From NCBI GenBank assembly GCA_021777565.1, contig JAJYDJ010000002.1, forward strand, positions 69,082 to 133,081: DNA of 64,000 nucleotides. Reading direction: 5' to 3'. The notes under the pieces were generated by a model, which did not search any database, was not told where the DNA came from, and saw only the letters and a program-made list of their open reading frames with translations. Numbering within the stretch: the first letter of the stretch is position 1; every line of letters begins with the position of its first letter. The position numbers were made by a program, and so were the translations under genes. Origin of the DNA: a bacterium (GTDB lineage: Bacteria; Patescibacteriota; Microgenomatia; Levybacterales; UBA12049). Positions 1 to 12,602 of the stretch are shown one piece after another.

Positions 1-1079
1 CAAATCCAGCTCTTAATCCAATTAATATAGAAGGTAATGCCCAAAATAATAGCAATGTTGTCTCTGGGAGTAATACTGATATCCCAACCATCCTTACTGG
101 ACAACCAAATCATATATTTAATTACTATATTACGAATGCATATATTGGTCCCCTTGAAAACTTGCTTGGATTAACTCCTCTCACAGATTCTCCGTCAATA
201 ATTGGCTATAACTTACTAAATGGCCTCCTTCCAGGTGTTGGCACGCTTTTTGGGACACTTCAAGCAATTTCCCATGGATTGAGTCCTATTGAAGGACTTT
301 TTTATATGATTTCTGCAGATATGGCAGCTCCAGGAGCTACTTTTATGGGTGATCTTGCATCTCGAATAGAAGTAGGAGGTACTAACTTGTGGGCACCAGT
401 ACTTGGGGTAGGGGCGAGTACAGCAGCCTATGCGATTCTTGTCCCTATAATTATGGGGCTTATTAGCCTAAACATAGCAACCATCTTTCAGGTTATTCTT
501 ATCGTTTCTGTATTTATAGGTGTAATTATGCTTCTCATCATGCTCATTAAGGCTTTCATGTCTATCATTTTTTCTACTGTCCTTGCGCCTCTTGCTATTG
601 TTCTTGGTATTTTCCCTGGATCTGGAGAAGGATTTGGACATTGGGCTAAAGGTCTTATTGCAGACTTTCTACTCTTTCCAGCAGTACTTGGATTATTTCA
701 TCTTGGTTATGACATTGCAAGTGTGATCAATACGGATACCACAGGCTTCTTTACTCCGCTCTTCATTCCTTCTAGCCTTCTTAAGGCTACAACCGACCAT
801 GGCTATGGCCAACTAAACTTTGCTCATAGTGGGACAATTAATGGGCTTTCTTTAATTGTAATTTACTTTACAATTTTTGCTGCAGCTTCATTGAGAGATG
901 TTCTTAGGAAGAGTCTCGGAGTTGCTGATAATCCACTAGTTACTGCAGCCATGGGAATAGCTTTGGGTGGGAGTAAACAGGTACAAAGTCGTTTAGGTCT
1001 AAAAATGAGTAAAATACCGGAGCTTAAAAACACAGCTCAGTTCAAAAGTGCAATGCTAGGAAAGATTGGCGGCCCCTAA
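1..1079 (+). CDS. Polytopic membrane protein, VirB6/TrbL-like (T4SS inner-membrane channel component); 5' partial because the reading frame is open to the window edge
   Basis: Frame 3 has no stop from nt 3 to the listed ORF at 162. The protein has more than five hydrophobic helices. It sits immediately upstream of the pilin-like genes and VirB4. The family assignment rests on topology and context only. Confidence 0.4.
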   Translation, partial: NPALNPINIEGNAQNNSNVVSGSNTDIPTILTGQPNHIFNYYITNAYIGPLENLLGLTPLTDSPSIIGYNLLNGLLPGVGTLFGTLQAISHGLSPIEGLFYMISADMAAPGATFMGDLASRIEVGGTNLWAPVLGVGASTAAYAILVPIIMGLISLNIATIFQVILIVSVFIGVIMLLIMLIKAFMSIIFSTVLAPLAIVLGIFPGSGEGFGHWAKGLIADFLLFPAVLGLFHLGYDIASVINTDTTGFFTPLFIPSSLLKATTDHGYGQLNFAHSGTINGLSLIVIYFTIFAAASLRDVLRKSLGVADNPLVTAAMGIALGGSKQVQSRLGLKMSKIPELKNTAQFKSAMLGKIGGP

Positions 1080-1084
1080 CGATA

Positions 1085-2959
1085 ATGAAAAAATATATTT
1101 TTACATCGCTTTTATTTTTAGTATTGTCCTATCTTATATATCTCCCTGAGAACGCTTTTGCTCGCATAAATGCAATCTGTACTACAGATTTTGGGAAAGC
1201 TGATGACCATAGTCTTATGCTCGTAAATTCCTCTTTACCAACTCAAACCCAACCGACACCAACACCAGTTTGTTATTCTCCGCCGGTTTTGAATTACCCA
1301 ACATGCGCCCCAAGCCCAACCTCAATAGCAACTCAACCAACTATTACACCAGCTTCACCAACAACCATTGATCCCATTTTTTTCTCCTATGCAATTACGA
1401 ATCAACTTGATTTTGTTGACAGTCCCAAAAATAATTTATATATAACTAGTAACTATGTCGGACCACAATCACCGACAGGGACTCTCTCTGTACCAGTACC
1501 ATTTCAAAAATACAACGCAGATCTTGGGTTTTATTATAGTTTTATTCCAGGCACAATCCATTTCAGTGATGCCGGGGGAACAACAGGTGCTACAAATGGC
1601 GACTATCATGGGACAAGAACCGATGGGTCCCCATATAGTAGCCAGTGTGAATCGTCAGCTGACCCAGCAATTAACCAAATGTGTGTAAGTAGCACTGATA
1701 TTGACACTCCTGGAGTACACTATCAATCTCTCCCCGACAATCAAAATTCTGCTTGCTATAGCTATTGTGAATGTGGATATCAAATAGGAGATATCACTGT
1801 GACCACGCAAAATGTTGCAAGTGGGACACAGACATTAATTGATTATAGTAAATTACGATTTGCACCAACCGCAGGAGGAGAATTATCTGCCCCACAAATT
1901 AATGTCACCTATCAATCACAAAATTGTGATGTGGGATTTAAAAATTGTAAGCCCGATACCACAATTAGCCCTCAGGTAGTATCTATACCAGGAAAGGTTG
2001 GATACTTCTGTGGAATTGCACATAATACTTATTATGTACTGCAAAGTGCTATCCCACAAATATCATCATCTATTTCTAATACAACACAGTCCTTTGACTC
2101 CCTTTTCCCCGTGCCAGCGGGTAATCAAGTTGAAATAGGATCAACGAAAGAGTCATACTATGGCAGAGAGTTCGGACATGGAATTGACATCGAAAGTAAT
2201 CCTAGTGCAAGTGGTATAACCAATCTCCCCCAAGGGCTAACCAATTCGGATATCCCAACTGTGTGCATGAATCTTGACTATAAAAACAGTGGTCCAAATG
2301 CACAAAATGGAGGAGATCAAGGCATTATTAAATTTGTTCCTGTATTTGGAGCCAACGACTGCAAGCAAATTGGGGCATTAAATTCGTATAGCTGTTGGTT
2401 TGATGGATACGCTACGGTGAATACTTGCCCTCCGGGTACAAGTTATAATAGTAAGGCCAACTGGGGATGGCCATGTTCACAAAACAATAGTACTGATCCT
2501 AAATATCAAGCAGTAACTAGTCCAATACCAAATAGTTTACTTGTCAATCATACTGCTGCTGGTATTAAGTACAGTACCCCCCCTCTCATTTATCCCAGTG
2601 ATGCTATACCAAATATCAATTTATTGACCAATACCTCATTTACTAATATCGAAACAAAAGCTCAATCGTGTGATGCTACGGGCTGTGATACAGCAATAGG
2701 CAGAATCCCTACCGATCCAAAACTTTTTACTGGAAGTATCATGCAATATATTCTGGGATTTAGTGGTATAACTGCACTTATTCTTATTATTCTTGGCGGA
2801 TATGAGTTAATAACATCTCAAGGAGATGAAACAAAAGTGAAAGCAGCTCGAGAGAGAATAACATCTGCTATTATTGGACTTCTCTTTATAATTTTTTCAG
2901 CAACATTCTTACAAATTCTTGGCATAGACATCTTGAACTTGCCTGGATTAGGGAAATAA
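1085..2959 (+). CDS. Secreted Cys/Thr/Asn-rich extracellular protein (about 560 aa) fused to a C-terminal VirB2/TrbC-like pilin hairpin domain
   Basis: N-terminal signal peptide MKKYIFTSLLFLVLSYLIYLPENAFA. Many Cys residues sit in the exported part. The C-terminus ILGFSGITALILIILGGYELITSQGDETKVKAARERITSAIIGLLFIIFSATFL has the same two-helix W/L-I-T-S-Q-G-D-x-K motif as the three downstream small proteins. Confidence 0.5.
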   Translation: MKKYIFTSLLFLVLSYLIYLPENAFARINAICTTDFGKADDHSLMLVNSSLPTQTQPTPTPVCYSPPVLNYPTCAPSPTSIATQPTITPASPTTIDPIFFSYAITNQLDFVDSPKNNLYITSNYVGPQSPTGTLSVPVPFQKYNADLGFYYSFIPGTIHFSDAGGTTGATNGDYHGTRTDGSPYSSQCESSADPAINQMCVSSTDIDTPGVHYQSLPDNQNSACYSYCECGYQIGDITVTTQNVASGTQTLIDYSKLRFAPTAGGELSAPQINVTYQSQNCDVGFKNCKPDTTISPQVVSIPGKVGYFCGIAHNTYYVLQSAIPQISSSISNTTQSFDSLFPVPAGNQVEIGSTKESYYGREFGHGIDIESNPSASGITNLPQGLTNSDIPTVCMNLDYKNSGPNAQNGGDQGIIKFVPVFGANDCKQIGALNSYSCWFDGYATVNTCPPGTSYNSKANWGWPCSQNNSTDPKYQAVTSPIPNSLLVNHTAAGIKYSTPPLIYPSDAIPNINLLTNTSFTNIETKAQSCDATGCDTAIGRIPTDPKLFTGSIMQYILGFSGITALILIILGGYELITSQGDETKVKAARERITSAIIGLLFIIFSATFLQILGIDILNLPGLGK

Positions 2960-2960
2960 T

Positions 2961-3290
2961 ATGAACAATATTGCCTTATCAATTAACGGTGTTCAATATA
3001 ACCTCCCTGGACCAATTGAAAATCTCAACAATGCAGCAGGAAGCCTTGGTGTAAATATTATAAATACTACTATTAACCTTCTTTTCATAATTGCAGTTAT
3101 TATTGCCTTGTTTTATTTAGTTTCTGGGGGAGTTAAGTGGATAATCTCTGGGGGTGATCAAAAAAAAATAGAAGGAGCACGTAATACCATTACATATTCT
3201 GTAATTGGACTTGTACTTGTCTTCATTTCATTTATTATTATGAATTTCCTGTCTAATTTCTTTGGTATTCCTCTTCTTGGGAATTCATAG
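2961..3290 (+). CDS. T4SS pilin-like protein (VirB2/TrbC-like two-helix hairpin)
   Basis: The motif LFYLVSGGVKWIISGGDQKKIEGARNTITYSVIGLVLVFISFIIM is shared with the three neighbouring paralogues. The start codon is 2 nt after the upstream stop. Confidence 0.5.
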   Translation: MNNIALSINGVQYNLPGPIENLNNAAGSLGVNIINTTINLLFIIAVIIALFYLVSGGVKWIISGGDQKKIEGARNTITYSVIGLVLVFISFIIMNFLSNFFGIPLLGNS

Positions 3291-3528
3291 ATCTGCCAAT
3301 GTGCTCAGTATAGGACAAACGGATTAAGTAAAAAATAAATTCTGAAAGAGATGGAAATGCATCTTCTCTGGAGACCATGACATGATATAAACTTTTTCAC
3401 CAGATCAGACAACAAAACAAAGATTGGGTTCATAGAATATACTCATTTTCACAATTAACTACGGCTGATACTACCAACCAGCTTGCCTATTGACAAAATG
3501 TAAAAACTTACCTAGGCTTAATATAGTT

Positions 3529-3933
3529 ATGAAAAAAATAATCGTCTTTGCGAGTAGTCTCGGAGCAGTACTGTCTTTGGCAACCCCAGCATTTGCTACA
3601 GGTGGACTTGGAAGCATTTGCCCTCAAGGTGCATTTGGTAACCTTTGTGGTAATTCACAAAATGCCTTTGGTAGTACTATTAGTTCATTTTTGACTCTTA
3701 TTTTTGTTGTTTCCGCTATCATTGCATTGGTCTTCTTGGTTTTGGGTGGTATCCGTTGGATTACCTCACAAGGAGATGCAAAAAATGTCGGTTCAGCAAG
3801 AGATCAAATTATCAATTCTTTAATTGGTTTAGGAGTTGTATTTATCTCATACATTTTGATTAACGTTATTCTCTACTTCTTTACTGGCGGAAGTCTTAGT
3901 CAAGTCAATATACCAACATTTAACGCTCAATAA
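3529..3933 (+). CDS. T4SS pilin-like protein with a cleavable signal peptide
   Basis: The internal start MKKIIVFASSLGAVLSLATPAFA is signal-peptide-like. The motif LVLGGIRWITSQGDAKNVGSARDQIINSLIGLGVVFISYIL follows. The ORF-track start at 3490 is probably an N-terminal over-extension. Confidence 0.5.
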   Translation: MKKIIVFASSLGAVLSLATPAFATGGLGSICPQGAFGNLCGNSQNAFGSTISSFLTLIFVVSAIIALVFLVLGGIRWITSQGDAKNVGSARDQIINSLIGLGVVFISYILINVILYFFTGGSLSQVNIPTFNAQ

Positions 3934-3939
3934 TCCTCT

Positions 3940-4281
3940 ATGTTTAACTGGGGAACATGCATGCAAGACCCAATCACAGGTGCTACTAATCTGGGTTACT
4001 TGACGTTTAACTGCCTTCCAAATTTTTTTCAAGGGGTCATCCAGACAGCACTCTCATTCGTAGGGATCACTTGTGCTATTTTTATTATTATTGCGGGATT
4101 TAAACTCGTATCCTCACAAGGTGATGCAAAAAAAATTGCAGAAGGGAGAAACACTCTCACATTCGCACTTATTGGACTTGTAGTGGTTATCCTTTCCTTC
4201 ACTATTATTCACTTCTTCTCATACGTTACTGGTTTAGGATGTTTGATGAATCTTAACTTTGGAACTGGTTGTACACAATAG
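3940..4281 (+). CDS. T4SS pilin-like protein
   Basis: The motif IIAGFKLVSSQGDAKKIAEGRNTLTFALIGLVVVILSFTIIH is a paralogue of the three upstream pilin-like domains. Confidence 0.5.
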   Translation: MFNWGTCMQDPITGATNLGYLTFNCLPNFFQGVIQTALSFVGITCAIFIIIAGFKLVSSQGDAKKIAEGRNTLTFALIGLVVVILSFTIIHFFSYVTGLGCLMNLNFGTGCTQ

Positions 4282-4323
4282 GTCTTCTTGCACCAGTTAA
4301 CTCGTCCATAGTAGAGTATATAT

Positions 4324-5688
4324 ATGGACCAAGATATGCGCCATCCCATCCCTCAGGACATTACTGGATTTAAATTTAGATTAGTTGGAGATATTACGCT
4401 GAAACAATTTACTTATCTCGCCATCGGCGGAGGTGCAGCGTGGTTTATCTATTCCCTCCCAGTCTGGGGCGTAGTGAAATATCCAATAGTCGGCATATTT
4501 ACTATTGGAGCTCTCATTCTTACCTTCCTGCCGATCCAAGGCCGTCCTGCAGACGCCATGATTATGTTGTTTTTTAAAACTGTTTTTCGCAATAATCAAT
4601 ATACTAAGCGTCCTAAGAGACCAGCACCTGCTATGACACCAAATCAACCTACCAGTACACCACCAACGCCGGCACCTGCTGCTGCCGAAGCTCAAACACC
4701 ACCCGATATGCTGGCTATACCAGTAATTGATGAATCAGCACTGCACAATGAAGCTGCGTCACAACCGACCTTTCCTGAGCAACCTACCACACCATCTAAG
4801 ACAACCCCTCAGATCGCACCTGAATCACCTATTACGACAGAGCAAACACCTGAAACTCCATCAACAAAGATAGCCATACCTTCACAGCCAGCCATGCCAG
4901 AGACACCTGTTACAACAAGCATGACAGAGCAACCATCAACAGAAGCGCCAACAGCTCCAACCCAACCTGAGACAACGGCCGAAGAGATGACTCAGCCGTC
5001 AGAGATACCTCAATCAGCACCAACAGGTACTCCTACCCCATCGTTTGAAGTGACAGAGATTCATGCACGGCCTCATGATGATAAAGAAGATCTTCTCAAG
5101 CGTATTCAGGAGCTTGAGGCACAACTAAAGGCTCAAGCACAAGAACAACAACCTACTGTGCAAGAGGCAGCGATGCAAGAAACTACTACACAAACAGCTC
5201 CTGAAACGACAGTGCAAGCACTTGATCAACTTCAAACACAGCCTGTTCAGGCACTTGTTGATGCTACGCGAGTAGAGACATCGGAACCTATGAACCCCAC
5301 ACCCGTGGCTGAGCCTGTTACGACACAACCGACGGTTCTAACACCAACACCAACGACGCCTGCGTTGCAATCTAGTGATGTACCAAATATGGTGATTGGC
5401 CAGATTATTGACCCACGTGGATTGCCACTTGCAAATATCTTAGTTGAGATCGTTGATACACAGAAAAACCCGGTGAGAGCTTTTAAGTCAGCACAGAATG
5501 GTCAATTTGCCACAGCGACCCCACTGACAGCAGGCTCTTATCTGCTGATGTGTGAAGATCCCGAAGGAAAGCAGAAATTTCAACCAATGCCTCTTTTGGT
5601 TAATGATACTATCCTCTCCCCTCTCACTATTCAGTCTACCGATGAGCGCGAAGAATTACGAAAAGCACTCTTTACACCCAGTGTATGA
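4324..5688 (+). CDS. PrgI/VirB3-like membrane protein with a roughly 230-aa Pro/Thr/Glu-rich linker and a C-terminal transthyretin/carboxypeptidase-regulatory-like beta-sandwich domain
   Basis: The N-terminus FKFRLVGDITLKQFTYLAIGGGAAWFIYSLP followed by two TM helices resembles the PrgI family and lies directly upstream of VirB4. A low-complexity PT-rich tract follows. The C-terminal VIGQIIDPRGLPLANILVEIVDT...GSYLLMCEDPEGKQ has a CarbopepD_reg-like pattern. Confidence 0.5.
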   Translation: MDQDMRHPIPQDITGFKFRLVGDITLKQFTYLAIGGGAAWFIYSLPVWGVVKYPIVGIFTIGALILTFLPIQGRPADAMIMLFFKTVFRNNQYTKRPKRPAPAMTPNQPTSTPPTPAPAAAEAQTPPDMLAIPVIDESALHNEAASQPTFPEQPTTPSKTTPQIAPESPITTEQTPETPSTKIAIPSQPAMPETPVTTSMTEQPSTEAPTAPTQPETTAEEMTQPSEIPQSAPTGTPTPSFEVTEIHARPHDDKEDLLKRIQELEAQLKAQAQEQQPTVQEAAMQETTTQTAPETTVQALDQLQTQPVQALVDATRVETSEPMNPTPVAEPVTTQPTVLTPTPTTPALQSSDVPNMVIGQIIDPRGLPLANILVEIVDTQKNPVRAFKSAQNGQFATATPLTAGSYLLMCEDPEGKQKFQPMPLLVNDTILSPLTIQSTDEREELRKALFTPSV

Positions 5689-6245
5689 GCCAAATTGTTT
5701 CAACACAAGATTTTACAGAGATAGCGGACATCCAAGGTGATATTGTTGTTATGACCAATGGTGGTGCCTGTATTATTGTGGAAATTTTCTCCACCAACTT
5801 CGCCCTTCTCTCTCAAGATGAACAGATGAGTAAAATCGTTGGCTTTAGTTCTTTTCTTAACTCCATCACGTTCCCGTTACAAATTCTGGTCATCAATAAG
5901 CGTGTTGATATTAGTAACTACATCGCAGTGCTAAAAAGCGAAGAAACACACGCACAAAACCCCGAGGCCAATGCGTACATCAGTGCCTATACCAACTTTG
6001 TACAAAATTTAGTGAAAGATAATATCGTCCTAGATAAACGTTTTTTTGCAGTGATTTCTTATTCTCCGCTTGAATCGGGTGTTATTGGACTTGTCGATCC
6101 AAAAGATATTGTTGAAAAAGCAAAGGCAAGTCTGCAATCCAAAGCACAGTCGGTGCAGAGCCTTCTTACTCGAATGAATTTTCAGTCAAAAATCCTAGCT
6201 GATGATGCATTGAAAGGAGTGTATCTATCACTTTACATACAATAA
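5685..6245 (+). CDS. VirB4 N-terminal domain fragment (split VirB4, part 1)
   Basis: MSQIVSTQDFTEIADIQGDIVVMTNGGACIIVEI...LSQDEQ resembles the start of VirB4/TrbE/CagE. The ORF stops 1 nt before the next ATG. Confidence 0.5.
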   Translation: MSQIVSTQDFTEIADIQGDIVVMTNGGACIIVEIFSTNFALLSQDEQMSKIVGFSSFLNSITFPLQILVINKRVDISNYIAVLKSEETHAQNPEANAYISAYTNFVQNLVKDNIVLDKRFFAVISYSPLESGVIGLVDPKDIVEKAKASLQSKAQSVQSLLTRMNFQSKILADDALKGVYLSLYIQ

Positions 6246-6246
6246 T

Positions 6247-8028
6247 ATGGCAAGCATAGCACCAAAGAAATATACCAAAGAGGAAGTAGTAATCAAAAGA
6301 GTCAATGCTGAGTTGCAAGATAGCATTGCGCCACAGACTATTGAGACAGATTTCTCATACGTAAAAGTAAACGATAAATTCTATCGAACTTTTTTCGTAA
6401 ACGGTTACCCTCGTTATGTCTCAACAAACTGGCTCCAGCCTTTGATTGATTTTAACCACGAGTTAAATATTAGTTTTTTCATTTATCCCTCAGAGTCAGC
6501 TGAAGTGCTTGATAACATCCAGAGAAAGATTGCAGAACTGGAAGCGACACTCTCTTCCAACGCTGATACAGGGAAACCGGTTGATCCTAAAATTACTGCG
6601 ACACTAGAAGACGCGCTTAATATTCAAGAAGAGCTTGCAAAAGGAATAGAAAAATTCTTTCATCTTGGTTTGTATATGACTCTCGTTGGATCAACGCTTG
6701 CTGAGCTCAATACAACTTCAAAACAGTTAACCACAACCCTTGGCTCACTCCTTCTGGCGACACAGCCTGCAACACTACAGATGGAAGATGGCTTTAAAAC
6801 AACTCTTCCTTATGGACTAGATCGCGTACAACAAACAAGAAATATGGATACGACATCTCTGTCGTCCATGTTCCCTTTCTCAAGTGCCACTCTGACGCAA
6901 AATAAGGGGGTTCTATACGGTATTAATGAACAGAACGCCTCACTAGTCGTCTTTGATAGATTCTCCATGGAAAACGCCAATGAAATCGTTTTCGGGAAGT
7001 CTGGTTCTGGGAAGTCTTACCTTATTAAATTAGAAATTTTAAGAACCTTCATGTTTGGGACAGAAGTGATTGTCATCGATCCTGAAAATGAATATGAGCT
7101 GGTGGCCAAGGCGCTGGGAGGAGAATATGTTGCATTCTCTGCTGAGTCTGCTGTGCGCATTAATCCATTTGATCTTTCTGGGATGCATGATGATAGTACC
7201 AATGAACTTGGAGAAAAAATATTATCACTCCACGCTTTACTAAAGATAGCTATGGGAGAGATCTCACCAGTTATGGATGCCATTTTAGATCGTGCTCTTA
7301 TCCAGACCTACGAACAAAAAGGCATTACGCAGGACCCAACAACTCAAAGTAAAACACCACCTATCATGCAGGATTTGTATGACACACTCAATACAATGAA
7401 AGAGACAGAAGCAAAAGAGCTCGCACTGAGACTAGAGAGATTCATTCGTGGGAGTCTTGCTGGATTTTTCAATCAACAATCTAATTTCAATATCACCAAT
7501 CCTCTTACGGTCTTTTCAATTCGTGATGTAGAAGATGAACTCAGACCACTCGTTATGCATATAATCCTTGACTTTATTTGGACTAAAGTTCGAAAAACCC
7601 TCAAAAAGCGTCTTTTGATCGTTGATGAAGCCTGGCTTCTGATGCGCTACGAAGATAGTGCATCTTTTATCTTTGGTATTGCAAAACGAGGACGTAAATA
7701 CTATCTCGGCTTGACTACGGCTACCCAAGATGTGGCTGACTTTTTGAGTACGCAATATGGGAAAGCTATTCTTTCCAACGCTTCTATTCAGATTCTTCTC
7801 AAACAGAGTACAACTGAAATTGATGAAGTTGCCAATATTTTTTATCTTTCACAAAACGAGAGACAATTACTCATGTCAGCTGAGGTTGGAGAAGGACTTT
7901 TCTTTGCTGGGCAGAATCATGTCGCAATACGTGTCGTTGCAGCAAGCTTTGAACATCAAATTATTACCTCAAAACCAGAAGACGTATTGAAAGCAAAAGC
8001 GCTGCTTACTACACCCGAACAGGCATAA
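6247..8028 (+). CDS. virB4: Type IV secretion ATPase VirB4 (TrbE/CagE family), C-terminal two-thirds
   Basis: Walker A GKSGSGKS, IDPENEY, Walker B LLIVDEAW and RKYYLGLTTATQDVAD are characteristic VirB4 motifs. Confidence 0.8.
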   Translation: MASIAPKKYTKEEVVIKRVNAELQDSIAPQTIETDFSYVKVNDKFYRTFFVNGYPRYVSTNWLQPLIDFNHELNISFFIYPSESAEVLDNIQRKIAELEATLSSNADTGKPVDPKITATLEDALNIQEELAKGIEKFFHLGLYMTLVGSTLAELNTTSKQLTTTLGSLLLATQPATLQMEDGFKTTLPYGLDRVQQTRNMDTTSLSSMFPFSSATLTQNKGVLYGINEQNASLVVFDRFSMENANEIVFGKSGSGKSYLIKLEILRTFMFGTEVIVIDPENEYELVAKALGGEYVAFSAESAVRINPFDLSGMHDDSTNELGEKILSLHALLKIAMGEISPVMDAILDRALIQTYEQKGITQDPTTQSKTPPIMQDLYDTLNTMKETEAKELALRLERFIRGSLAGFFNQQSNFNITNPLTVFSIRDVEDELRPLVMHIILDFIWTKVRKTLKKRLLIVDEAWLLMRYEDSASFIFGIAKRGRKYYLGLTTATQDVADFLSTQYGKAILSNASIQILLKQSTTEIDEVANIFYLSQNERQLLMSAEVGEGLFFAGQNHVAIRVVAASFEHQIITSKPEDVLKAKALLTTPEQA

Positions 8029-9109
8029 TAAGATGAAGGAATGATTCATCGTTGGTATTTTTCAACACGGCAGGACTTAACGGTGCGGTCATCTCAAATA
8101 CAACCTCGTCAGTCGAAATTGCATTTACCCCATCTAGTAAAAATCGTGGATTAAACGCTATCGCATTCTCCTCACCCTTGAGTGTCCCTTCAATAGTCAC
8201 CGTACTCTCCCCTACTGATGCTGTCTGGGCAAACATGCGCATCTGGTCTTTATGTAACTCACAGACCAAAACACTGGTGCTGTCCCGTGCAACCACAGAA
8301 CAAATCTTAACAGCTCGAAGCAAATCATCTTTTTTCACGATTATTTTGCTCGAGGCTTCATGGGGAATAATTTTACTATAGCTTGGGAACTCTCCCTCGA
8401 TTTTTCTTCCCGCGATACGTACTCCGTCCTGAACAGCCACAATTTGATTTACCTGGTCTGATAAATAGAATTGAATTGGCATATCTTCTCGCAGTGCCCC
8501 AAGTTCTTTTAAGAATCGCGATGAGAACACAATCCCTTTCTGCTCTTCTCCAGCCTCTTCACGTGGGATACTTACTAAAGAAAGTCTAAATCCATCAGTT
8601 GCGACAAAACGGATTTCATTTTCTTTCCTTTCACACAAAACCCCTGACCAGATCGGCTTAGTTACCTCACTACTGGTAGCAAACAACGTATATTTTGTGA
8701 TTTTCTCCATGTCTTTTGGTTGAAGGGTCAAAAATGCTACTTTAGTTTCCTCAAAAATATCAGGGAATTCATCGGCGGGCTGAACTTGTAATTTACTACT
8801 AATGCTCTCCCCTACTATCTGAATTGTGTTTTGTGCAGATGTTTTAAGGGTAATCTTTCCTTCAGGTACTTGTGATAATAGTTCGAGAAATGTTTTTGCT
8901 GGAACCGCTACTTCCCCTTCTTCATCTACTACACACTGAAACGTTGTTTCTATACTGAGTTCCAAATCTGTTGCAGTAAGAGTAACACTGTCTCCTTTGG
9001 CACGTACAAGAATTGACGACAATATAGGAAGTTGAGTGCGTGTCGAGATACTATGTGCAGTAAGCGCTAAATGTTTTTGTAAAATTCCAGATAAAACAGT
9101 GAACACCAT
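8009..9109 (-). CDS. dnaN: DNA polymerase III beta sliding clamp
   Basis: The length and sequence (LHLIMPVRV at the C-terminus, three-domain clamp pattern) fit DnaN. It lies downstream of dnaA. It overlaps the virB4 3' end by 20 nt in convergent orientation. Confidence 0.9.
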   Translation of the reverse strand: MVFTVLSGILQKHLALTAHSISTRTQLPILSSILVRAKGDSVTLTATDLELSIETTFQCVVDEEGEVAVPAKTFLELLSQVPEGKITLKTSAQNTIQIVGESISSKLQVQPADEFPDIFEETKVAFLTLQPKDMEKITKYTLFATSSEVTKPIWSGVLCERKENEIRFVATDGFRLSLVSIPREEAGEEQKGIVFSSRFLKELGALREDMPIQFYLSDQVNQIVAVQDGVRIAGRKIEGEFPSYSKIIPHEASSKIIVKKDDLLRAVKICSVVARDSTSVLVCELHKDQMRMFAQTASVGESTVTIEGTLKGEENAIAFNPRFLLDGVNAISTDEVVFEMTAPLSPAVLKNTNDESFLHLIMPVRV

Positions 9110-9239
9110 AGATTTATTCTAGTAGTTGTAGTAGTGTACCGGGAAAAGTGGAAAAACGCAAGGGATCGAGGCTAAAATAATGTGGATAACCGTGTGTACA
9201 ACTTTGGGGATGAAATGGGGACAACCCACCTCCTTCTAG
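9110..9239. promoter_or_regulatory. dnaA-dnaN intergenic region with DnaA boxes (candidate oriC or DnaA-box region)
   Basis: A perfect TGTGGATAA (reverse of TTATCCACA) sits at about 9181-9189, and a 7/9 box at about 9147-9155. Two further TTATCCCC boxes lie just inside the dnaA 3' end (about 9240-9247 and 9260-9267). Confidence 0.4.
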
Positions 9240-10622
9240 TTATCCCCTGAGATTTCGAGTTATCCCCATGATCTCCTCATTGAGTTCTGCACTGTTTTTC
9301 AACAGGTTTTCCACCTTTTCGATTCCATGCATAATGGTTGTGTGATCTCGTCCCCCAAGTAAATTCCCAATTTCAACCAGTGTTGTACCTAATTCTTGTT
9401 TAAGAAGAAACATTGTCACTTGTCGTGCCTTGACCAAGGCTGCATCTCGCTTGGGGCCTTTGAGCTGGGTAGGTTTGACATCATAGTACTCACAGGTGCT
9501 TTTAATAATATCGTCTGAGTGCAGGCGGAAACCAATTGGTTTGGCGTCTTTTAATATATTTGAAGCTAGTATTTTCTCTGCAGAGACCTGTCGTGTCTGA
9601 GCCTCAGTCATTACTCGAAGCAACGCTCCCTCAAGGCTTCTCACGTCCTGTTCTTTCTCTGCAATTGCCTTGGCTATCTCAATATCTATGTCATAGCCAA
9701 ACTTCTCTGCCTTTTTCATGATGATTGCGGTACGCATGGCAAAATCTGGTTCTTGAATATCAATGGTTAGCCCCCCAGCAAATCGTGAAGAGAGTCTTGC
9801 TTCAAGTTTTTTAATCTCCTGTGGTGGTTTATCTGAAGTCAGAACAATCTGTCCACCAGCATCGATAATAGCGTTAAAGGTGTGAAAGAGCTCTTCCTGC
9901 ACTTTCTCCTTACCCGAGATGAACTGAATATCATCAATAATGAGCAGATTGGCACTTCTAAAATATCGTTTCATAGCACTCGTATTATTGTTTCGAATGG
10001 CGTCAACAACACGGTTAATAAAATCTTCACTGGTGCAATAAATAATGGTGAGTGAACTGTCTTTTTGGTATGCCTGATTGGCAATGGCGTGCATGATATG
10101 CGTCTTCCCTACTCCGGTTGGACCATACACAAAAAGAGGGTTGTATGATCGCCCTAAGTTATTGGCCACGGTTTGAGCAGAGACATAGGCAAGTTGGTTG
10201 CTGTCTGAGACCGCTAAGTTTTCAAAGGTGAAATCTTTTCGTACGCGTGGAATATGTCCCATACTTGGCATGACTTCCTTTTTCTCAGTGAAGTCAAATT
10301 GGTCTTGCGGGAGTTTCTCTTTTACTTGTTTTTTAACCGTTTTCGTAGCGAACTCAAGTGTTGTAACTGGGGTAGGAGTGTATTTACTCATGGTCTCTTT
10401 CAGAAGGCTTGAAAACTTCTTATCTAAAAAGTCAGCAACGACTGTGGATAACGTCGCAATTTTTACTGTTGAGTCTTGAATTTCTATAACTTCTGATGTT
10501 TTAAAAAATGAAGTAAAATTACCCATGGAAACCTCAGTTTTTATATCCTGGAGCGTTTTCTCCCAAATTTCTTCCGTAGTCATCGTAGACTCAATTAAAG
10601 AATGTGGATAACTTCTTGTCAA
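9240..10622 (-). CDS. dnaA: Chromosomal replication initiator DnaA
   Basis: AAA+ Walker A GPTGVGKTH and box VII are present, together with the C-terminal DNA-binding signature KARQVTMFLLKQELGTTLVEIGNLLGGRDHTTIMH. It starts with TTG, and a perfect DnaA box (10603-10611) overlaps the start region. Confidence 0.95.
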   Translation of the reverse strand: MTRSYPHSLIESTMTTEEIWEKTLQDIKTEVSMGNFTSFFKTSEVIEIQDSTVKIATLSTVVADFLDKKFSSLLKETMSKYTPTPVTTLEFATKTVKKQVKEKLPQDQFDFTEKKEVMPSMGHIPRVRKDFTFENLAVSDSNQLAYVSAQTVANNLGRSYNPLFVYGPTGVGKTHIMHAIANQAYQKDSSLTIIYCTSEDFINRVVDAIRNNNTSAMKRYFRSANLLIIDDIQFISGKEKVQEELFHTFNAIIDAGGQIVLTSDKPPQEIKKLEARLSSRFAGGLTIDIQEPDFAMRTAIIMKKAEKFGYDIDIEIAKAIAEKEQDVRSLEGALLRVMTEAQTRQVSAEKILASNILKDAKPIGFRLHSDDIIKSTCEYYDVKPTQLKGPKRDAALVKARQVTMFLLKQELGTTLVEIGNLLGGRDHTTIMHGIEKVENLLKNSAELNEEIMGITRNLRG

Positions 10623-10669
10623 TAGATCACATAGACACAGGACAAAAGTTTTGGTACAATTACCCTGTT

Positions 10670-10804
10670 ATGGAAAGACTTCGTACCACAAAAGGAACCA
10701 AAAAAGCGCGCAAGCATGGATTCCTTGCTCGTCGCAAAACGGCAAATGGACGCACTGTCATTGCTCGTCGCCGCGCAAAAAATCGCAAAAGAATAGCTCA
10801 GTAA
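10670..10804 (+). CDS. rpmH: 50S ribosomal protein L34
   Basis: MERLRTTKGTKKARKHGFLARRKTANGRTVIARRRAKNRKRIAQ is a canonical L34. The ORF track extends it upstream from a GTG at 10604. Confidence 0.9.
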   Translation: MERLRTTKGTKKARKHGFLARRKTANGRTVIARRRAKNRKRIAQ

Positions 10805-11124
10805 TGTTTGCAAAACCTTTTCGCCTCACTCTTGGCAGACAAAAAATTCTTGGTCAGAGATTCACGTCCCCTACTCTTTCTCTTGTCGTTTCAGATAATG
10901 GTCTCGAGCATAATAGGTATGCCTGTCTTGTGACTAAAAAAGTAGACAAGAGAGCAGTCATTCGTAATCGAATCAGAAGGCTTGTTATTTCAGAACTCCA
11001 GGCGAAACATCTCCAAATTCACCCCAGACATGATCTTTTTTTTATGGCAAAAGTAACACAACAAGATGAAAAACAAATCCAAAGTGATGTCTCATCTCTT
11101 CTTGAACAAGCTCATCTGTTATGA
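10804..11124 (+). CDS. rnpA: RNase P protein component
   Basis: MFAKPFRLTLGRQ...VTKKVDKRAVIRNRIRRL is the RnpA pattern. Its ATG overlaps the rpmH stop (TAATG), the classical rpmH-rnpA arrangement. Confidence 0.85.
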   Translation: MFAKPFRLTLGRQKILGQRFTSPTLSLVVSDNGLEHNRYACLVTKKVDKRAVIRNRIRRLVISELQAKHLQIHPRHDLFFMAKVTQQDEKQIQSDVSSLLEQAHLL

Positions 11125-11333
11125 AATATTTTTTTATTGCCAGTATCTGGATTTATCATGTTATCCTCTCCCCTATTCTTCGTAGTATTGTAGGAACAAA
11201 AAATGTCTGTCGATATACTCCTTCCTGCTCAGAATATGCTCTCGAGCGTTTACAAAAAGACGGGATCAAAAGTCTTCCTGATATTACTCGTCGTTTGCTC
11301 TCGTGTCATCCTTTTGGTACAATACAAAAGTGA
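11121..11333 (+). CDS. yidD: Membrane protein insertion efficiency factor YidD
   Basis: CRYTPSCSEYALE...RRLLSCHPFG is the YidD signature. Confidence 0.8.
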   Translation: MKYFFIASIWIYHVILSPILRSIVGTKNVCRYTPSCSEYALERLQKDGIKSLPDITRRLLSCHPFGTIQK

Positions 11334-12157
11334 AAATAACTGGCATCTTTGCAACTCCTGTTCTTGGCCCAATTACTATCCTTCTAACCAATTTCCTTTT
11401 GATTTTTTATCATGGGTTTGTTTTTGCTAATATTCCTTATGCGCTTGGGTTTTCCATTATTGCGCTGACTTTGTTTTTTAGAATTGTTCTATATCCATTT
11501 ACTGCATCTCAAATCAGAACATCCGTAAAAATGCAAAAAATTGCTCCTCATGTGAATAAGCTCAAAGAACTCCATAAAAATGATTCCAAAAAACTGCAGG
11601 AAGAAACAATGAAACTCTATAAAGAACACGGGGTTAATCCTGCTGCAGGATGTCTGCCTATGATTATCCAGCTTCCCTTTATCTGGGCACTGTATGCGCT
11701 CCTGCAATATGTGGTAAAAACAGCCCCAACACAGGTGCTAACCGCGGTAAATAATGTCGTGTATTTCCCTTTCTTGAAGCTTCCCATGGTATGGGATCAG
11801 CACTTCTTTGGCCTTTCTCTTGGTCAAGCCCCTGCAGACATGTTCAAGCATGGGATGGTATGGATTTTGATCTTCCCAGCACTTACTGCGGCGTTACAGT
11901 TTATTCAATCAAAAATGATGTTTAACACTCCTGCTCCAGAGCCAGGGGCGCAAAAGAAAGACGACCTTTCTAGTGCAATGCAAACTCAATCTCTGTATAT
12001 CTTCCCAATCATGATTGGATTCTTCTCATATACCCTTCCATTTGGTCTCACTCTCTACTGGAATACGTTCACACTTTTTGGTATACTACAACAGTACTTA
12101 GTTGCAGGATGGGGTGGACTTGAATCCCACATTGAGAAATTCCTGCGAAGAAAATAA
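11303..12157 (+). CDS. yidC: Membrane protein insertase YidC (short form)
   Basis: The Oxa1/YidC core is present: ...GCLPMIIQLPFIWALYAL..., with 5 TM helices, in the conserved rnpA-yidD-yidC-jag order. Confidence 0.85.
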   Translation: MSSFWYNTKVKITGIFATPVLGPITILLTNFLLIFYHGFVFANIPYALGFSIIALTLFFRIVLYPFTASQIRTSVKMQKIAPHVNKLKELHKNDSKKLQEETMKLYKEHGVNPAAGCLPMIIQLPFIWALYALLQYVVKTAPTQVLTAVNNVVYFPFLKLPMVWDQHFFGLSLGQAPADMFKHGMVWILIFPALTAALQFIQSKMMFNTPAPEPGAQKKDDLSSAMQTQSLYIFPIMIGFFSYTLPFGLTLYWNTFTLFGILQQYLVAGWGGLESHIEKFLRRK

Positions 12158-12158
12158 T

Positions 12159-12602
12159 ATGGAACAAACAGCAAAAGAACTTATTCAGCAATTCTTCGAC
12201 GTCCTTGACGTTAAGACAGAATTTTCTGTCACAGAGGCAGACGGAGCTATTGAAGTTGAACTTACGGGTGAAGAAAATGGCATGCTCATTGGCTATCACG
12301 GTGAGACACTTGAAGCTCTCCAAGTTTTGATTAGTCTCATGCTTGCAAAAAAGACTGGAAGTTATATGCCAGTTTCCCTTGAAGTTGGTGAATATAAGAA
12401 AAATCGTATTGAACATTTGAAAGAAATAGTTGAGAATATGAAAGCTGACGTACTCAGTCAGCATCGTGCAATTGCATTCCCAAGACTCAAGTCATGGGAA
12501 CGTCGGTTTGTACACACATACCTTAAAGATGATCCAGAAGTTGGTACCCAATCAGAAGGAGAAGGTCGTGACCGCACTCTCTCAATTTATCCAAAAGCAT
12601 AA
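12159..12602 (+). CDS. jag: Jag/KhpB-like RNA-binding protein (KH plus R3H)
   Basis: It has an R3H-like C-terminus and lies immediately after yidC. The start was chosen at MEQTAKE, directly after the yidC stop. Confidence 0.7.
   Translation: MEQTAKELIQQFFDVLDVKTEFSVTEADGAIEVELTGEENGMLIGYHGETLEALQVLISLMLAKKTGSYMPVSLEVGEYKKNRIEHLKEIVENMKADVLSQHRAIAFPRLKSWERRFVHTYLKDDPEVGTQSEGEGRDRTLSIYPKA

Follow-up and report, generated by a model that had tools for sequence, protein, structure and literature searches.

A stretch of 64,000 nucleotides from a Patescibacteria genome (contig JAJYDJ010000002.1; hereafter the window) carries a type IV secretion system (T4SS) operon whose first pilin gene encodes a modular protein of 624 residues, the long pilin. 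Its C-terminus is a genuine T4SS-pilin hairpin, which is preceded by a signal peptide and a Cys-rich ectodomain. The hairpins of such first-in-array (position-1) pilins form the best-conserved pilin class of related operons; the attached ectodomain is entirely different from one lineage to the next and in some proteins nearly missing. We read the protein as a modular minor pilin in which a conserved assembly module is joined to a swappable, disulfide-rich tip or cap domain facing the host, an interpretation to which we assign about even probability.

The long pilin ends in a T4SS-pilin hairpin

Residues 550–611 match Pfam family PF18895 (T4SS_pilin) over profile positions 10–70 of 71, with 28.1 bits (E 2.2e-6) against a gathering cut-off of 26.6 bits, which is a small margin. 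Homologues score 26.7–36.5 bits, and position-1 orthologues are recovered with E values of 1e-23 to 1e-30 by a hidden Markov model (HMM) built from the window's hairpins. The three small open reading frames (ORFs) downstream of the long pilin gene all match PF18895 as well (29.9–43 bits). All four pilins are also matched, below the cut-off, by the NCBIfam model 'pilin-like conjugal transfer protein' of mycoplasma integrative and conjugative elements.

An earlier note on this DNA had described the C-terminus as a copy of the two-helix motif of the three downstream proteins. In a MAFFT alignment the four hairpins share 26–35% identity and an invariant G..S.GD...R...IGL..S, so that membership of the same family was borne out; rather than a copy, the position-1 hairpin represents a separate, more conserved paralogue class (see below). 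Hydropathy analysis revealed hydrophobic stretches at approximately 550–578 and 590–620, and AlphaFold, based on a 20-sequence alignment, placed helices at 545–577 and 582–611 with a predicted local distance difference test (pLDDT) score of 86–92. The loop between the helices consists of SQGD followed by the basic sequence KVKAARER.

The long pilin thus shares with PF18895 the HMM score, the two-helix topology and the location in a T4SS cluster with VirB4 and a VirB3/PrgI-like protein. It differs in size: the family comprises small single-domain proteins (precursors of ~100–170 residues), whereas here the hairpin forms only the last ~80 of 624 residues. No match to PF04956 (TrbC/VirB2) was obtained for the window protein at E <0.1. 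This family was touched weakly by four of 83 related long pilins (E <1e-3, for example L016 with E 2.9e-4), in all cases below the cut-off. A search of the PDB sequences with the hairpin profile returned no real relatives.

Domain organization of the long pilin

The ORF is uninterrupted (for coordinates see Table 1). It starts with the first ATG following an in-frame stop, 5 nt past the stop of the upstream gene, and its own stop lies 1 nt ahead of the next ATG, so that the gene is tightly packed between its neighbours. An identical 624-residue protein is encoded in three independent ENA assemblies, in one of them on a 953-kb contig on which the same sequence as the window was found.

The N-terminus, MKKYIFTSLLFLVLSYLIYLPENAFA followed by R, reads by eye as a Sec signal peptide, and AlphaFold modelled a helix at residues 2–19. 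The protein contains 10.1% Ser, 9.9% Thr, 8% Pro, 8% Gly and 6.6% Asn. Its 18 Cys residues correspond to 2.9% overall and 3.5% of the ectodomain, a Cys-richness which is moderate, yet real for a bacterial exported protein. The mature ectodomain, which contains all 18 Cys residues, has 514 residues, a mass of 54.7 kDa and a pI of 4.6. An exported Cys-rich domain ahead of the hairpin, as proposed in the earlier note, is thus present and comprises about 520 residues. Neither internal repeats in the ectodomain nor paralogues elsewhere in the window were found.

The core of the ectodomain is followed by a Pro-rich stalk and then by a Cys loop with the element DTAIGxIxT. Loop and element are a hallmark of position-1 pilins; the window protein has DTAIGRIPT. 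The tail after helix 2, GIDILNLPGLGK, follows the pattern (V/I)D(I/L)L.(I/L)PG(F/L)(G/S)(K/R), which is kept in position-1 pilins and partly in pilin 2. We considered its 'LPGLGK' as a sortase (LPxTG) or PGF-CTERM signal and rejected this, as the residues are wrong and the motif is located after, not before, the membrane helix.

The ectodomain belongs to a very small family

A word-indexed search of 5.8 billion proteins returned only the window protein itself and a protein of 753 residues (P0002). When residues 27–550 were used for an exhaustive phmmer search against 1.84 billion representatives, only P0002 and a protein of 416 residues (P0003, identical to a gene in locus L006) were identified. 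The ectodomain profile search with alignment A3 returned the query only, and a scan of JGI metagenomes with motifs from the N-terminal domain gave no matches. As exhaustive searches return nothing beyond the family, it is tiny, with four distinct members including the 411-residue product of the first pilin gene of L010, from a Levyibacteriota genome. P0002 shares 73% identity with the window protein in the hairpin and 34–38% in alignable blocks of the ectodomain. P0002, P0003 and the L010 protein all have the domain order of the window protein, with signal peptide, Cys-rich domain and hairpin.

A Cys scaffold is common to all four proteins: N..C, CY..C.C, GY.CG, DC, C.F, C, GWPC, C. The core motifs of the window protein are N..C (197–200), CYSYCEC (224–230), GYFCG (306–310), TVC (392–394), KFVPVFGANDC (416–426), C.F (437–439) and WGWPC (460–464). 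The N-terminal extension is missing from the compact homologues P0003 and L010, and two insertions into the core (~231–300 and ~311–390) are restricted to the window protein and P0002. From the compact members it follows that the window ectodomain consists of a core of ~290 residues, an N-terminal extension of 160 residues and two large insertions. In a within-family control, hhalign aligned two halves of the ectodomain family with a probability of 98.5% (E 2e-15).

The earlier statement that the ectodomain has no recognised fold held after structure prediction and remote-homology analysis. Neither Pfam and NCBIfam nor a profile search of PDB sequences revealed relatives of the ectodomain. Full-length AlphaFold prediction from three sequences resulted in a mean pLDDT of 34, with values below 50 for the ectodomain. 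When residues 380–624 were modelled with 20 sequences, only the hairpin and one small module were resolved. This module (residues ~420–480) is beta-rich with disulfides and is the sole part of the ectodomain modelled with moderate confidence (pLDDT 71–81).

As an isolated segment of 65 residues, the module had CBM_14 as its sole Pfam match (E 0.024; 15.2 bits against a cut-off of 22.1), and three homologous segments did not match CBM_14. Foldseek searches of PDB and BFVD placed chitin-binding modules among the top matches, namely 8in6, 6so0, 1dqc and chitin-binding type-2 proteins of BFVD. The types represented are EHEP, the CBM14 of chitotriosidase, tachycitin and baculoviral chitin-binding type-2 proteins, all with E values of at least 0.25 over 23–48 aligned columns. 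A profile of four homologous segments detected no CBM14 chain among PDB sequences. These weak hints, all of them sub-significant, make a CBM14-like fold of the 60-residue module a possible lead. If real, a module binding N-acetylglucosamine polymers would suit contact with a host cell wall.

The first pilin of the array is a conserved class with variable ectodomains

Relatives were collected by scanning one genome per GTDB species with the family motifs. This resulted in 56 loci, all of them Patescibacteria-like, and every ORF of these was searched with the HMM built from the window's hairpins. In about 20 loci from Microgenomatia/Levyibacteria, the gene order is VirB6-like protein, long pilin, three to five small pilins, PrgI, TrsD, VirB4 and dnaN; without exception, the gene for a long product (199–662 residues; 753 in P0002) comes first among the pilin genes. 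Extended PF18895 proteins account for 57 of the 235 pilin-domain ORFs in the retrieved loci, a share that is biased by the retrieval (see below). The fusion, which the earlier note had considered unusual, is thus real and conserved in relatives, but it is not a one-off: in this clade, the first array gene normally has this form. A comparison of fusion versus separate genes, which the earlier note had proposed, showed that the fusion is kept in P0002, P0003 and L010 and gave no gene for a detached ectodomain.

In an alignment of 62 hairpins from 16 loci, all 16 position-1 hairpins are monophyletic, and with a mean identity of 54.8% between genomes they are the best-conserved class, while they share only 24–27% with hairpins from positions 2–4. 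This indicates that the position-1 protein is a specialised subunit and not a spare pilin copy. Position 3 also forms an exclusive clade (52% identity within, 24–37% between positions, across 16 genomes; window 1085..4281 with L007–L023 and L035). The grouping by position argues for a heteromeric structure and suggests a fixed structural role for each of the four paralogues, in contrast to the antigenic variation hitherto proposed in the literature.

The ectodomains behave differently. The 57 long proteins with a C-terminal pilin domain, together with P0001 and P0003, contain at least 20 clusters of ectodomains that share no BLAST similarity. A single, strongly diverged ectodomain superfamily was considered and, at the sensitivity of profile–profile alignment, rejected: comparison of the window family with 11 other position-1 clusters by hhalign yielded probabilities of at most 0.6%, as opposed to 98.5% in the within-family control. 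No domain was found when position-1 ectodomains were tested against Pfam. The Cys count is 6–30 in all position-1 ectodomains, consistent with extracellular folding.

In versions of only 127–167 residues, the signal peptide is directly followed by the short Cys loop, DTAIGxIxT and the hairpin, with almost no ectodomain. At least two of these short versions occupy the same operon context. Since they keep the hairpin and the Cys-loop/DTAIG element, the ectodomain is an add-on module. The window protein has retained both C529..C534 and DTAIGRIPT, and its ectodomain is therefore inserted between the signal peptide and the Cys loop.

A modular pilin with a proposed role as tip or cap, and alternatives

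In the membrane-bound hairpins of VirB2 and TraA pilins, the two termini face outwards and the basic loop faces inwards. By analogy, the ectodomain of the long pilin would be expected on the outer face of the membrane and, after assembly, on that of any filament. Going by F-pilus geometry, the filament surface available to one hairpin subunit amounts to only a few square nanometres. A domain of 55 kDa could not be packed on every hairpin of ~8 kDa, so that the long pilin should be a minor subunit, either terminal or sparse. In a model for R388, VirB5 nucleates the pilus on VirB6, growth occurs at the base and VirB5 ends at the tip (PMC12857230). Patescibacteria T4SSs have no detectable VirB5 or PrgB-type adhesin (PMC12102498). 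Taken together with this model and the missing VirB5, the location of the gene as the first of the array after the VirB6-like gene suggests that the first, distal layer consists of the long pilin.

Assembly may proceed as follows. The long pilin would be exported by Sec and its signal peptide removed. The ectodomain would fold extracellularly with disulfides, and the hairpin would be placed in the membrane with KVKAARER inside, as in VirB2/TraA. The VirB4/VirB3/VirB6-like machine would extract the hairpin as the first layer of a pilus, or of a conduit spanning the cell wall, made of pilins 2–4. As subunits incorporated first become distal in a base-growing pilus, the ectodomain would be displayed as a tip or cap touching the host surface, and the long pilin would functionally stand in for the missing VirB5 tip protein. 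It is the topology, the steric considerations and the pairing of a conserved hairpin with hypervariable ectodomains that point to a role as tip or adhesin. Only tentatively would we go further and propose that this covalent pilin–adhesin fusion caps the pili or wall-spanning conduits of Patescibacteria T4SSs and replaces VirB5 as both nucleator and tip, that the swappable ectodomain is the main determinant of the host cell to which the epibiont attaches and on which it feeds, and that ectodomain exchange on a constant hairpin drives the evolution of host range throughout the radiation.

Several points weigh against a tip or cap. A pilus has not been seen on the T4SS of any Patescibacterium, and its existence is itself a hypothesis (PMC12857230). 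Host binding, tip localisation and stoichiometry are what we infer. The proposed adhesin has no structural or sequence similarity to rely on except the weak CBM14 hints, its ectodomain being modelled with pLDDT below 50. Loci were retrieved with a motif from the window's own hairpin class, which biases the proportions obtained (38 of the 56 loci, 57 of the 235 pilin ORFs). In addition, the ectodomains of the two closest genomes are 34–38% identical in alignable blocks, compared with 31% for the VirB6-like proteins. As the ectodomain is no more diverged than the VirB6-like protein, 'hypervariable' refers to domain replacement across the clade and not to fast point evolution.

A pilus is not needed if the long pilin is a membrane-anchored surface protein. 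The hairpin would then be a two-helix anchor, or a dock on the VirB6-like channel, and never enter a filament; the ectodomain would act as a static adhesin, an outer vestibule of the channel or a cell-wall spacer. That the pilus of these monoderm systems is still hypothetical fits this alternative, as does the Pro-rich stalk of ~58 residues, which recalls the linkers by which surface proteins span the cell wall. An extracellular beta-sandwich on a long linker is likewise borne by the neighbouring PrgI-like protein, so that the machine may be decorated at the membrane. However, a simple anchor does not require a hairpin class with 55% identity that has its own Cys-loop/DTAIG element and C-terminal tail. 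Versions without ectodomain hold the same operon position, which indicates that the hairpin has a function of its own in the pilin set. We consider an anchored protein rather unlikely.

It is less probable still that the long pilin co-polymerises with pilins 2–4 and that its ectodomains stud the filament shaft for multivalent binding or shielding. F and T pilus structures show the N-terminus of every VirB2-type subunit at the outer surface. The presence of four conserved paralogue classes hints at a heteropolymer, and arrays of Magasanikbacteria contain two to four consecutive long pilins. On the other hand, the disproportion between ectodomain and hairpin would cause steric clashes above sparse occupancy, and the first position of the operon, after the VirB6-like gene, suits an initiator better.

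We see little probability for a precursor from which the ectodomain is cleaved after export, either as a giant pro-region that delays assembly or as a released factor, leaving the Cys loop and hairpin as mature pilin. Canonical pilins are heavily processed: F TraA sheds a leader of 51 residues and RP4 TrbC is trimmed at both ends. Short homologues start exactly at the Cys loop after the signal peptide. Yet inspection of the sequence ahead of C529 revealed no second signal-peptidase-like site or cleavage motif, and an ectodomain with Cys residues conserved across four diverged homologues would be a costly leader. Finally, a merger of two genes by frameshift or misassembly, of which the earlier note had seen no sign, has a negligible probability, considering the identical product in independent assemblies and the same architecture in P0002, P0003, L010 and dozens of positional orthologues.

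Genetic context of the long pilin gene

The T4SS setting assumed in the earlier note was confirmed: the operon encodes a VirB6-like protein, pilins, a PrgI/VirB3-like protein, TrsD and VirB4 (Table 1). It is the Patescibacteria T4SS of Quinonero-Coronel et al. 2025 (PMC12102498). This system is related to the monoderm MPF-FATA class, is located near dnaA, lacks a relaxase and has arrays of 2–11 VirB2-like pilins (PMC12102498). In the cultivated relative Southlakia epibionticum, the counterpart, pilin array and T4SS, is essential for epibiotic growth (PMC10633639).

Table 1. Features of the long pilin gene and of its surroundings in the window.
Position	Strand	Feature	Basis or remark
1085..2959	+	Long pilin gene (position-1 T4SS pilin of modular build, 624 residues): signal peptide, ectodomain and VirB2-like hairpin	
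1085..1162	+	Residues 1–26, Sec-type signal peptide (KK, hydrophobic core, AFA followed by R)	Judged by eye
1163..1639	+	Residues 27–185, lineage-specific N-terminal extension, Pro/Thr-rich stretch at ~50–95	Alignments
1640..2494	+	Residues 186–470, Cys-scaffolded core common to four family members	Alignments, hhalign
2321..2494	+	Residues 413–470, small beta-rich disulfide module, tentatively CBM14/peritrophin-A-like	AlphaFold model, Pfam, Foldseek
2495..2668	+	Residues 471–528, Pro-rich stalk from core to hairpin, poorly conserved	Alignments; pLDDT <50
2669..2716	+	Residues 529–544, Cys loop (C529..C534) and pre-helix element DTAIGxIxT	Beta-hairpin, pLDDT 74–79
2717..2917	+	Residues 545–611, VirB2-like helix-loop-helix (545–577, loop, 582–611)	Pfam, MAFFT, hydropathy, AlphaFold
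2918..2959	+	Residues 612–624 and stop, C-terminal tail	Conserved among position-1 pilins
1..1079	+	VirB6-like polytopic membrane protein, 584 residues, 3' part	Position and hydrophobicity; cut by window edge
2961..3290	+	Small pilin 2, 109 residues	PF18895; without classical signal peptide
3529..3933	+	Small pilin 3, 134 residues from ATG 3529	PF18895; signal peptide
3940..4281	+	Small pilin 4, 113 residues	PF18895
4324..5688	+	PrgI/VirB3-like membrane protein, 454 residues	PrgI and CarboxypepD_reg Pfam matches, both below cut-offs
5685..6245	+	TrsD/TraC-like protein, 186 residues	Resembles VirB4 N-terminal part as separate gene
6247..8028	+	VirB4-family ATPase, 593 residues	NCBIfam CD1110-type, 385 bits, above cut-off
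8009..9109	−	dnaN	
9240..10622	−	dnaA	

The VirB6-like protein gave no Pfam match. Small pilins 2 and 4 apparently lack a classical signal peptide, their uncharged N-terminal tails running straight into helix 1. As pilin 3 and the long pilin have a signal peptide, the subunits may use different routes of membrane insertion. An alternative upstream TTG at 3490 would extend small pilin 3 to 147 residues. The PrgI/VirB3-like protein contains a low-complexity linker of ~250 residues with a high content of Pro, Thr and Gln; its C-terminus is a CarboxypepD_reg-like beta-sandwich (Pfam E 2.6e-5, below cut-off). The combination of PrgI with CarboxypepD_reg recurs in relatives; an extracellular domain on a VirB3-like protein is unusual. 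VirB4 appears to be split (window 5685..8028), the TrsD/TraC-like gene matching the N-terminal region of mycoplasma VirB4 and overlapping the start of the ATPase gene region by a few bases. Such a split agrees with reports of a TrsD component in Patescibacteria.

The end of the operon directly adjoins dnaN and dnaA, which are followed by rpmH, rnpA, yidD and yidC on the opposite strand (window 8009..12157). These genes meet at the minimum of the cumulative GC skew, near 10–12 kb; the GC content is ~40% across the window. As the operon touches dnaN/dnaA and the skew turns at this point, the secretion cluster abuts the replication origin, a location also reported for the T4SS of some Patescibacteria (PMC12102498). 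The remainder of the window, which is chromosomal DNA, consists of housekeeping genes, and an Rfam scan of the window gave no matches. The nearest relatives of the locus are metagenome-assembled genomes labelled Levyibacteriota, Microgenomates, Roizmanbacteria or 'Patescibacteria group'. They place the source of the window, a host-dependent bacterium with a small genome, in the Patescibacteria (CPR) and probably in the class Microgenomatia.

Variants of the array in other lineages

The retrieved loci revealed further variants. The P0002 genome (L001 3..3051) contains two tandem VirB6-like paralogues upstream of the long pilin (>411 and 602 residues), both of which are matched by the 584-residue protein of the window. 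A short position-1 pilin was found in L062 (1934..7233) and on contig ERZ1426827 of P0005, where the array is broken by nadD-like and nadE-like genes (CTP_transf_like, NAD_synthase). In these lineages, the VirB6-like gene and pilin 1 are separated by a divergently transcribed gene for ~1000 residues, which encodes a highly charged product with a C-terminal hydrophobic segment. The ~1000-residue product was considered as a detached ectodomain beside a short position-1 pilin and rejected, being charged, free of Cys and without signal peptide.

In Saccharibacteria, the first array gene encodes two tandem pilin hairpins (L037 1063..2139, 359 residues; L047 2257..3045, 263 residues), which is another route to enlarging the position-1 subunit. 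A hairpin near the N-terminus followed by a long tail was counted in 18 proteins across the 56 loci. In Uhrbacteria (L045 2024..3916 and 3942..12263) the C-terminal extensions are very long: one protein has 631 residues with Big_5 Ig-like domains, the other more than 2774 residues with 143 Cys and runs off the contig. Magasanikbacteria and relatives (L038, L041, L044, L049, L050, L053–L057) possess arrays of 9–10 pilin genes. These arrays open with two to four long proteins (230–380 residues) with a C-terminal hairpin, and the ectodomains of these proteins make up two separate conserved families. Many GTDB genomes with the locus beside dnaN are titled 'uncultured Gammaproteobacteria bacterium' (L008, L009, L012, L013, L016, L017, L019–L021, L023, L025 and others). 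On genomes with a Patescibacteria-type T4SS and pilins, these titles look like taxonomic mislabels.

Comparison with known systems

T4SSs and pilin arrays of Patescibacteria are already known; a VirB2-type pilin with a large ectodomain, position classes and ectodomain swapping are undescribed in the searchable literature, in which we found no report on pilin–ectodomain fusions in T4SSs. The window locus shares PF18895, the operon genes, the dnaA/dnaN-adjacent site and an array of 2–11 divergent pilins with the systems of Wang et al. 2023 (PMC10633639) and Quinonero-Coronel et al. 2025 (PMC12102498). In these studies, by contrast, the pilins are regarded as small proteins and adhesins are stated to have gone undetected; we found no mention in them of a large pilin ectodomain, position-specific paralogue classes or ectodomain swapping. 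In the one species tested, epibiotic growth requires the T4SS, for which no adhesin or tip protein has been reported (PMC10633639, PMC12102498, PMC11665869). A first-in-array pilin class with interchangeable Cys-rich ectodomains provides a concrete, testable candidate for host contact.

VirB2/TrbC/TraA pilins (PF04956) have in common with the long pilin a signal or leader peptide, two hydrophobic helices, a short basic loop and the neighbourhood of VirB3, VirB4 and VirB6. Their mature canonical forms are only ~70–120 residues long. Some undergo head-to-tail cyclisation, which an N-terminal domain of 520 residues would not permit. With VirB5/TraC tip proteins the likeness would be one of proposed role only, that is nucleation on VirB6, location at the tip and contact with the target cell (PMC12857230). 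VirB5 is a separate, mostly helical soluble protein and not fused to a pilin. Homology of the window protein to VirB5/TraC was not detected by Pfam or NCBIfam, and the ectodomain profile has no PDB relative.

Within the ectodomain, residues ~434–464 (SYSCWFDG..TVNTCPPGTSYNS..WGWPC) resemble the core pattern of CBM14/peritrophin-A/tachycitin with a score below gathering. TraN is the Cys-rich mating-pair stabilisation protein of F-type systems and an outer-membrane protein of diderms. Like the long pilin, it has ~600 residues with many conserved Cys, is exported and is encoded with a T4SS; TraN contacts the recipient surface. It differs in having no pilin hairpin and in its location in the diderm outer membrane, and TraN family HMMs (Pfam, NCBIfam) did not match the window protein at E <0.1.

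The plan of a receptor domain plus a pilin domain is known from chaperone–usher and type IV pili. FimH and PapG as well as the modular type IV pilins PilB and PilC of S. sanguinis, CofB of enterotoxigenic Escherichia coli and TcpB of V. cholerae consist of a receptor module and a pilin module. To our knowledge, the protein described here would be the first VirB2-type pilin built in this way. Phage receptor-binding proteins likewise pair a conserved assembly module with an exchangeable outer module. The long pilin would follow the same design logic as FimH, PapG and the modular type IV pilins: covalent fusion, low copy number, incorporation as the first subunit and display at the tip. The pilin folds and assembly machines are unrelated, however, and the extra module of type IV pilins is C-terminal to the pilin helix, whereas that of the window protein is N-terminal to a VirB2-type hairpin.

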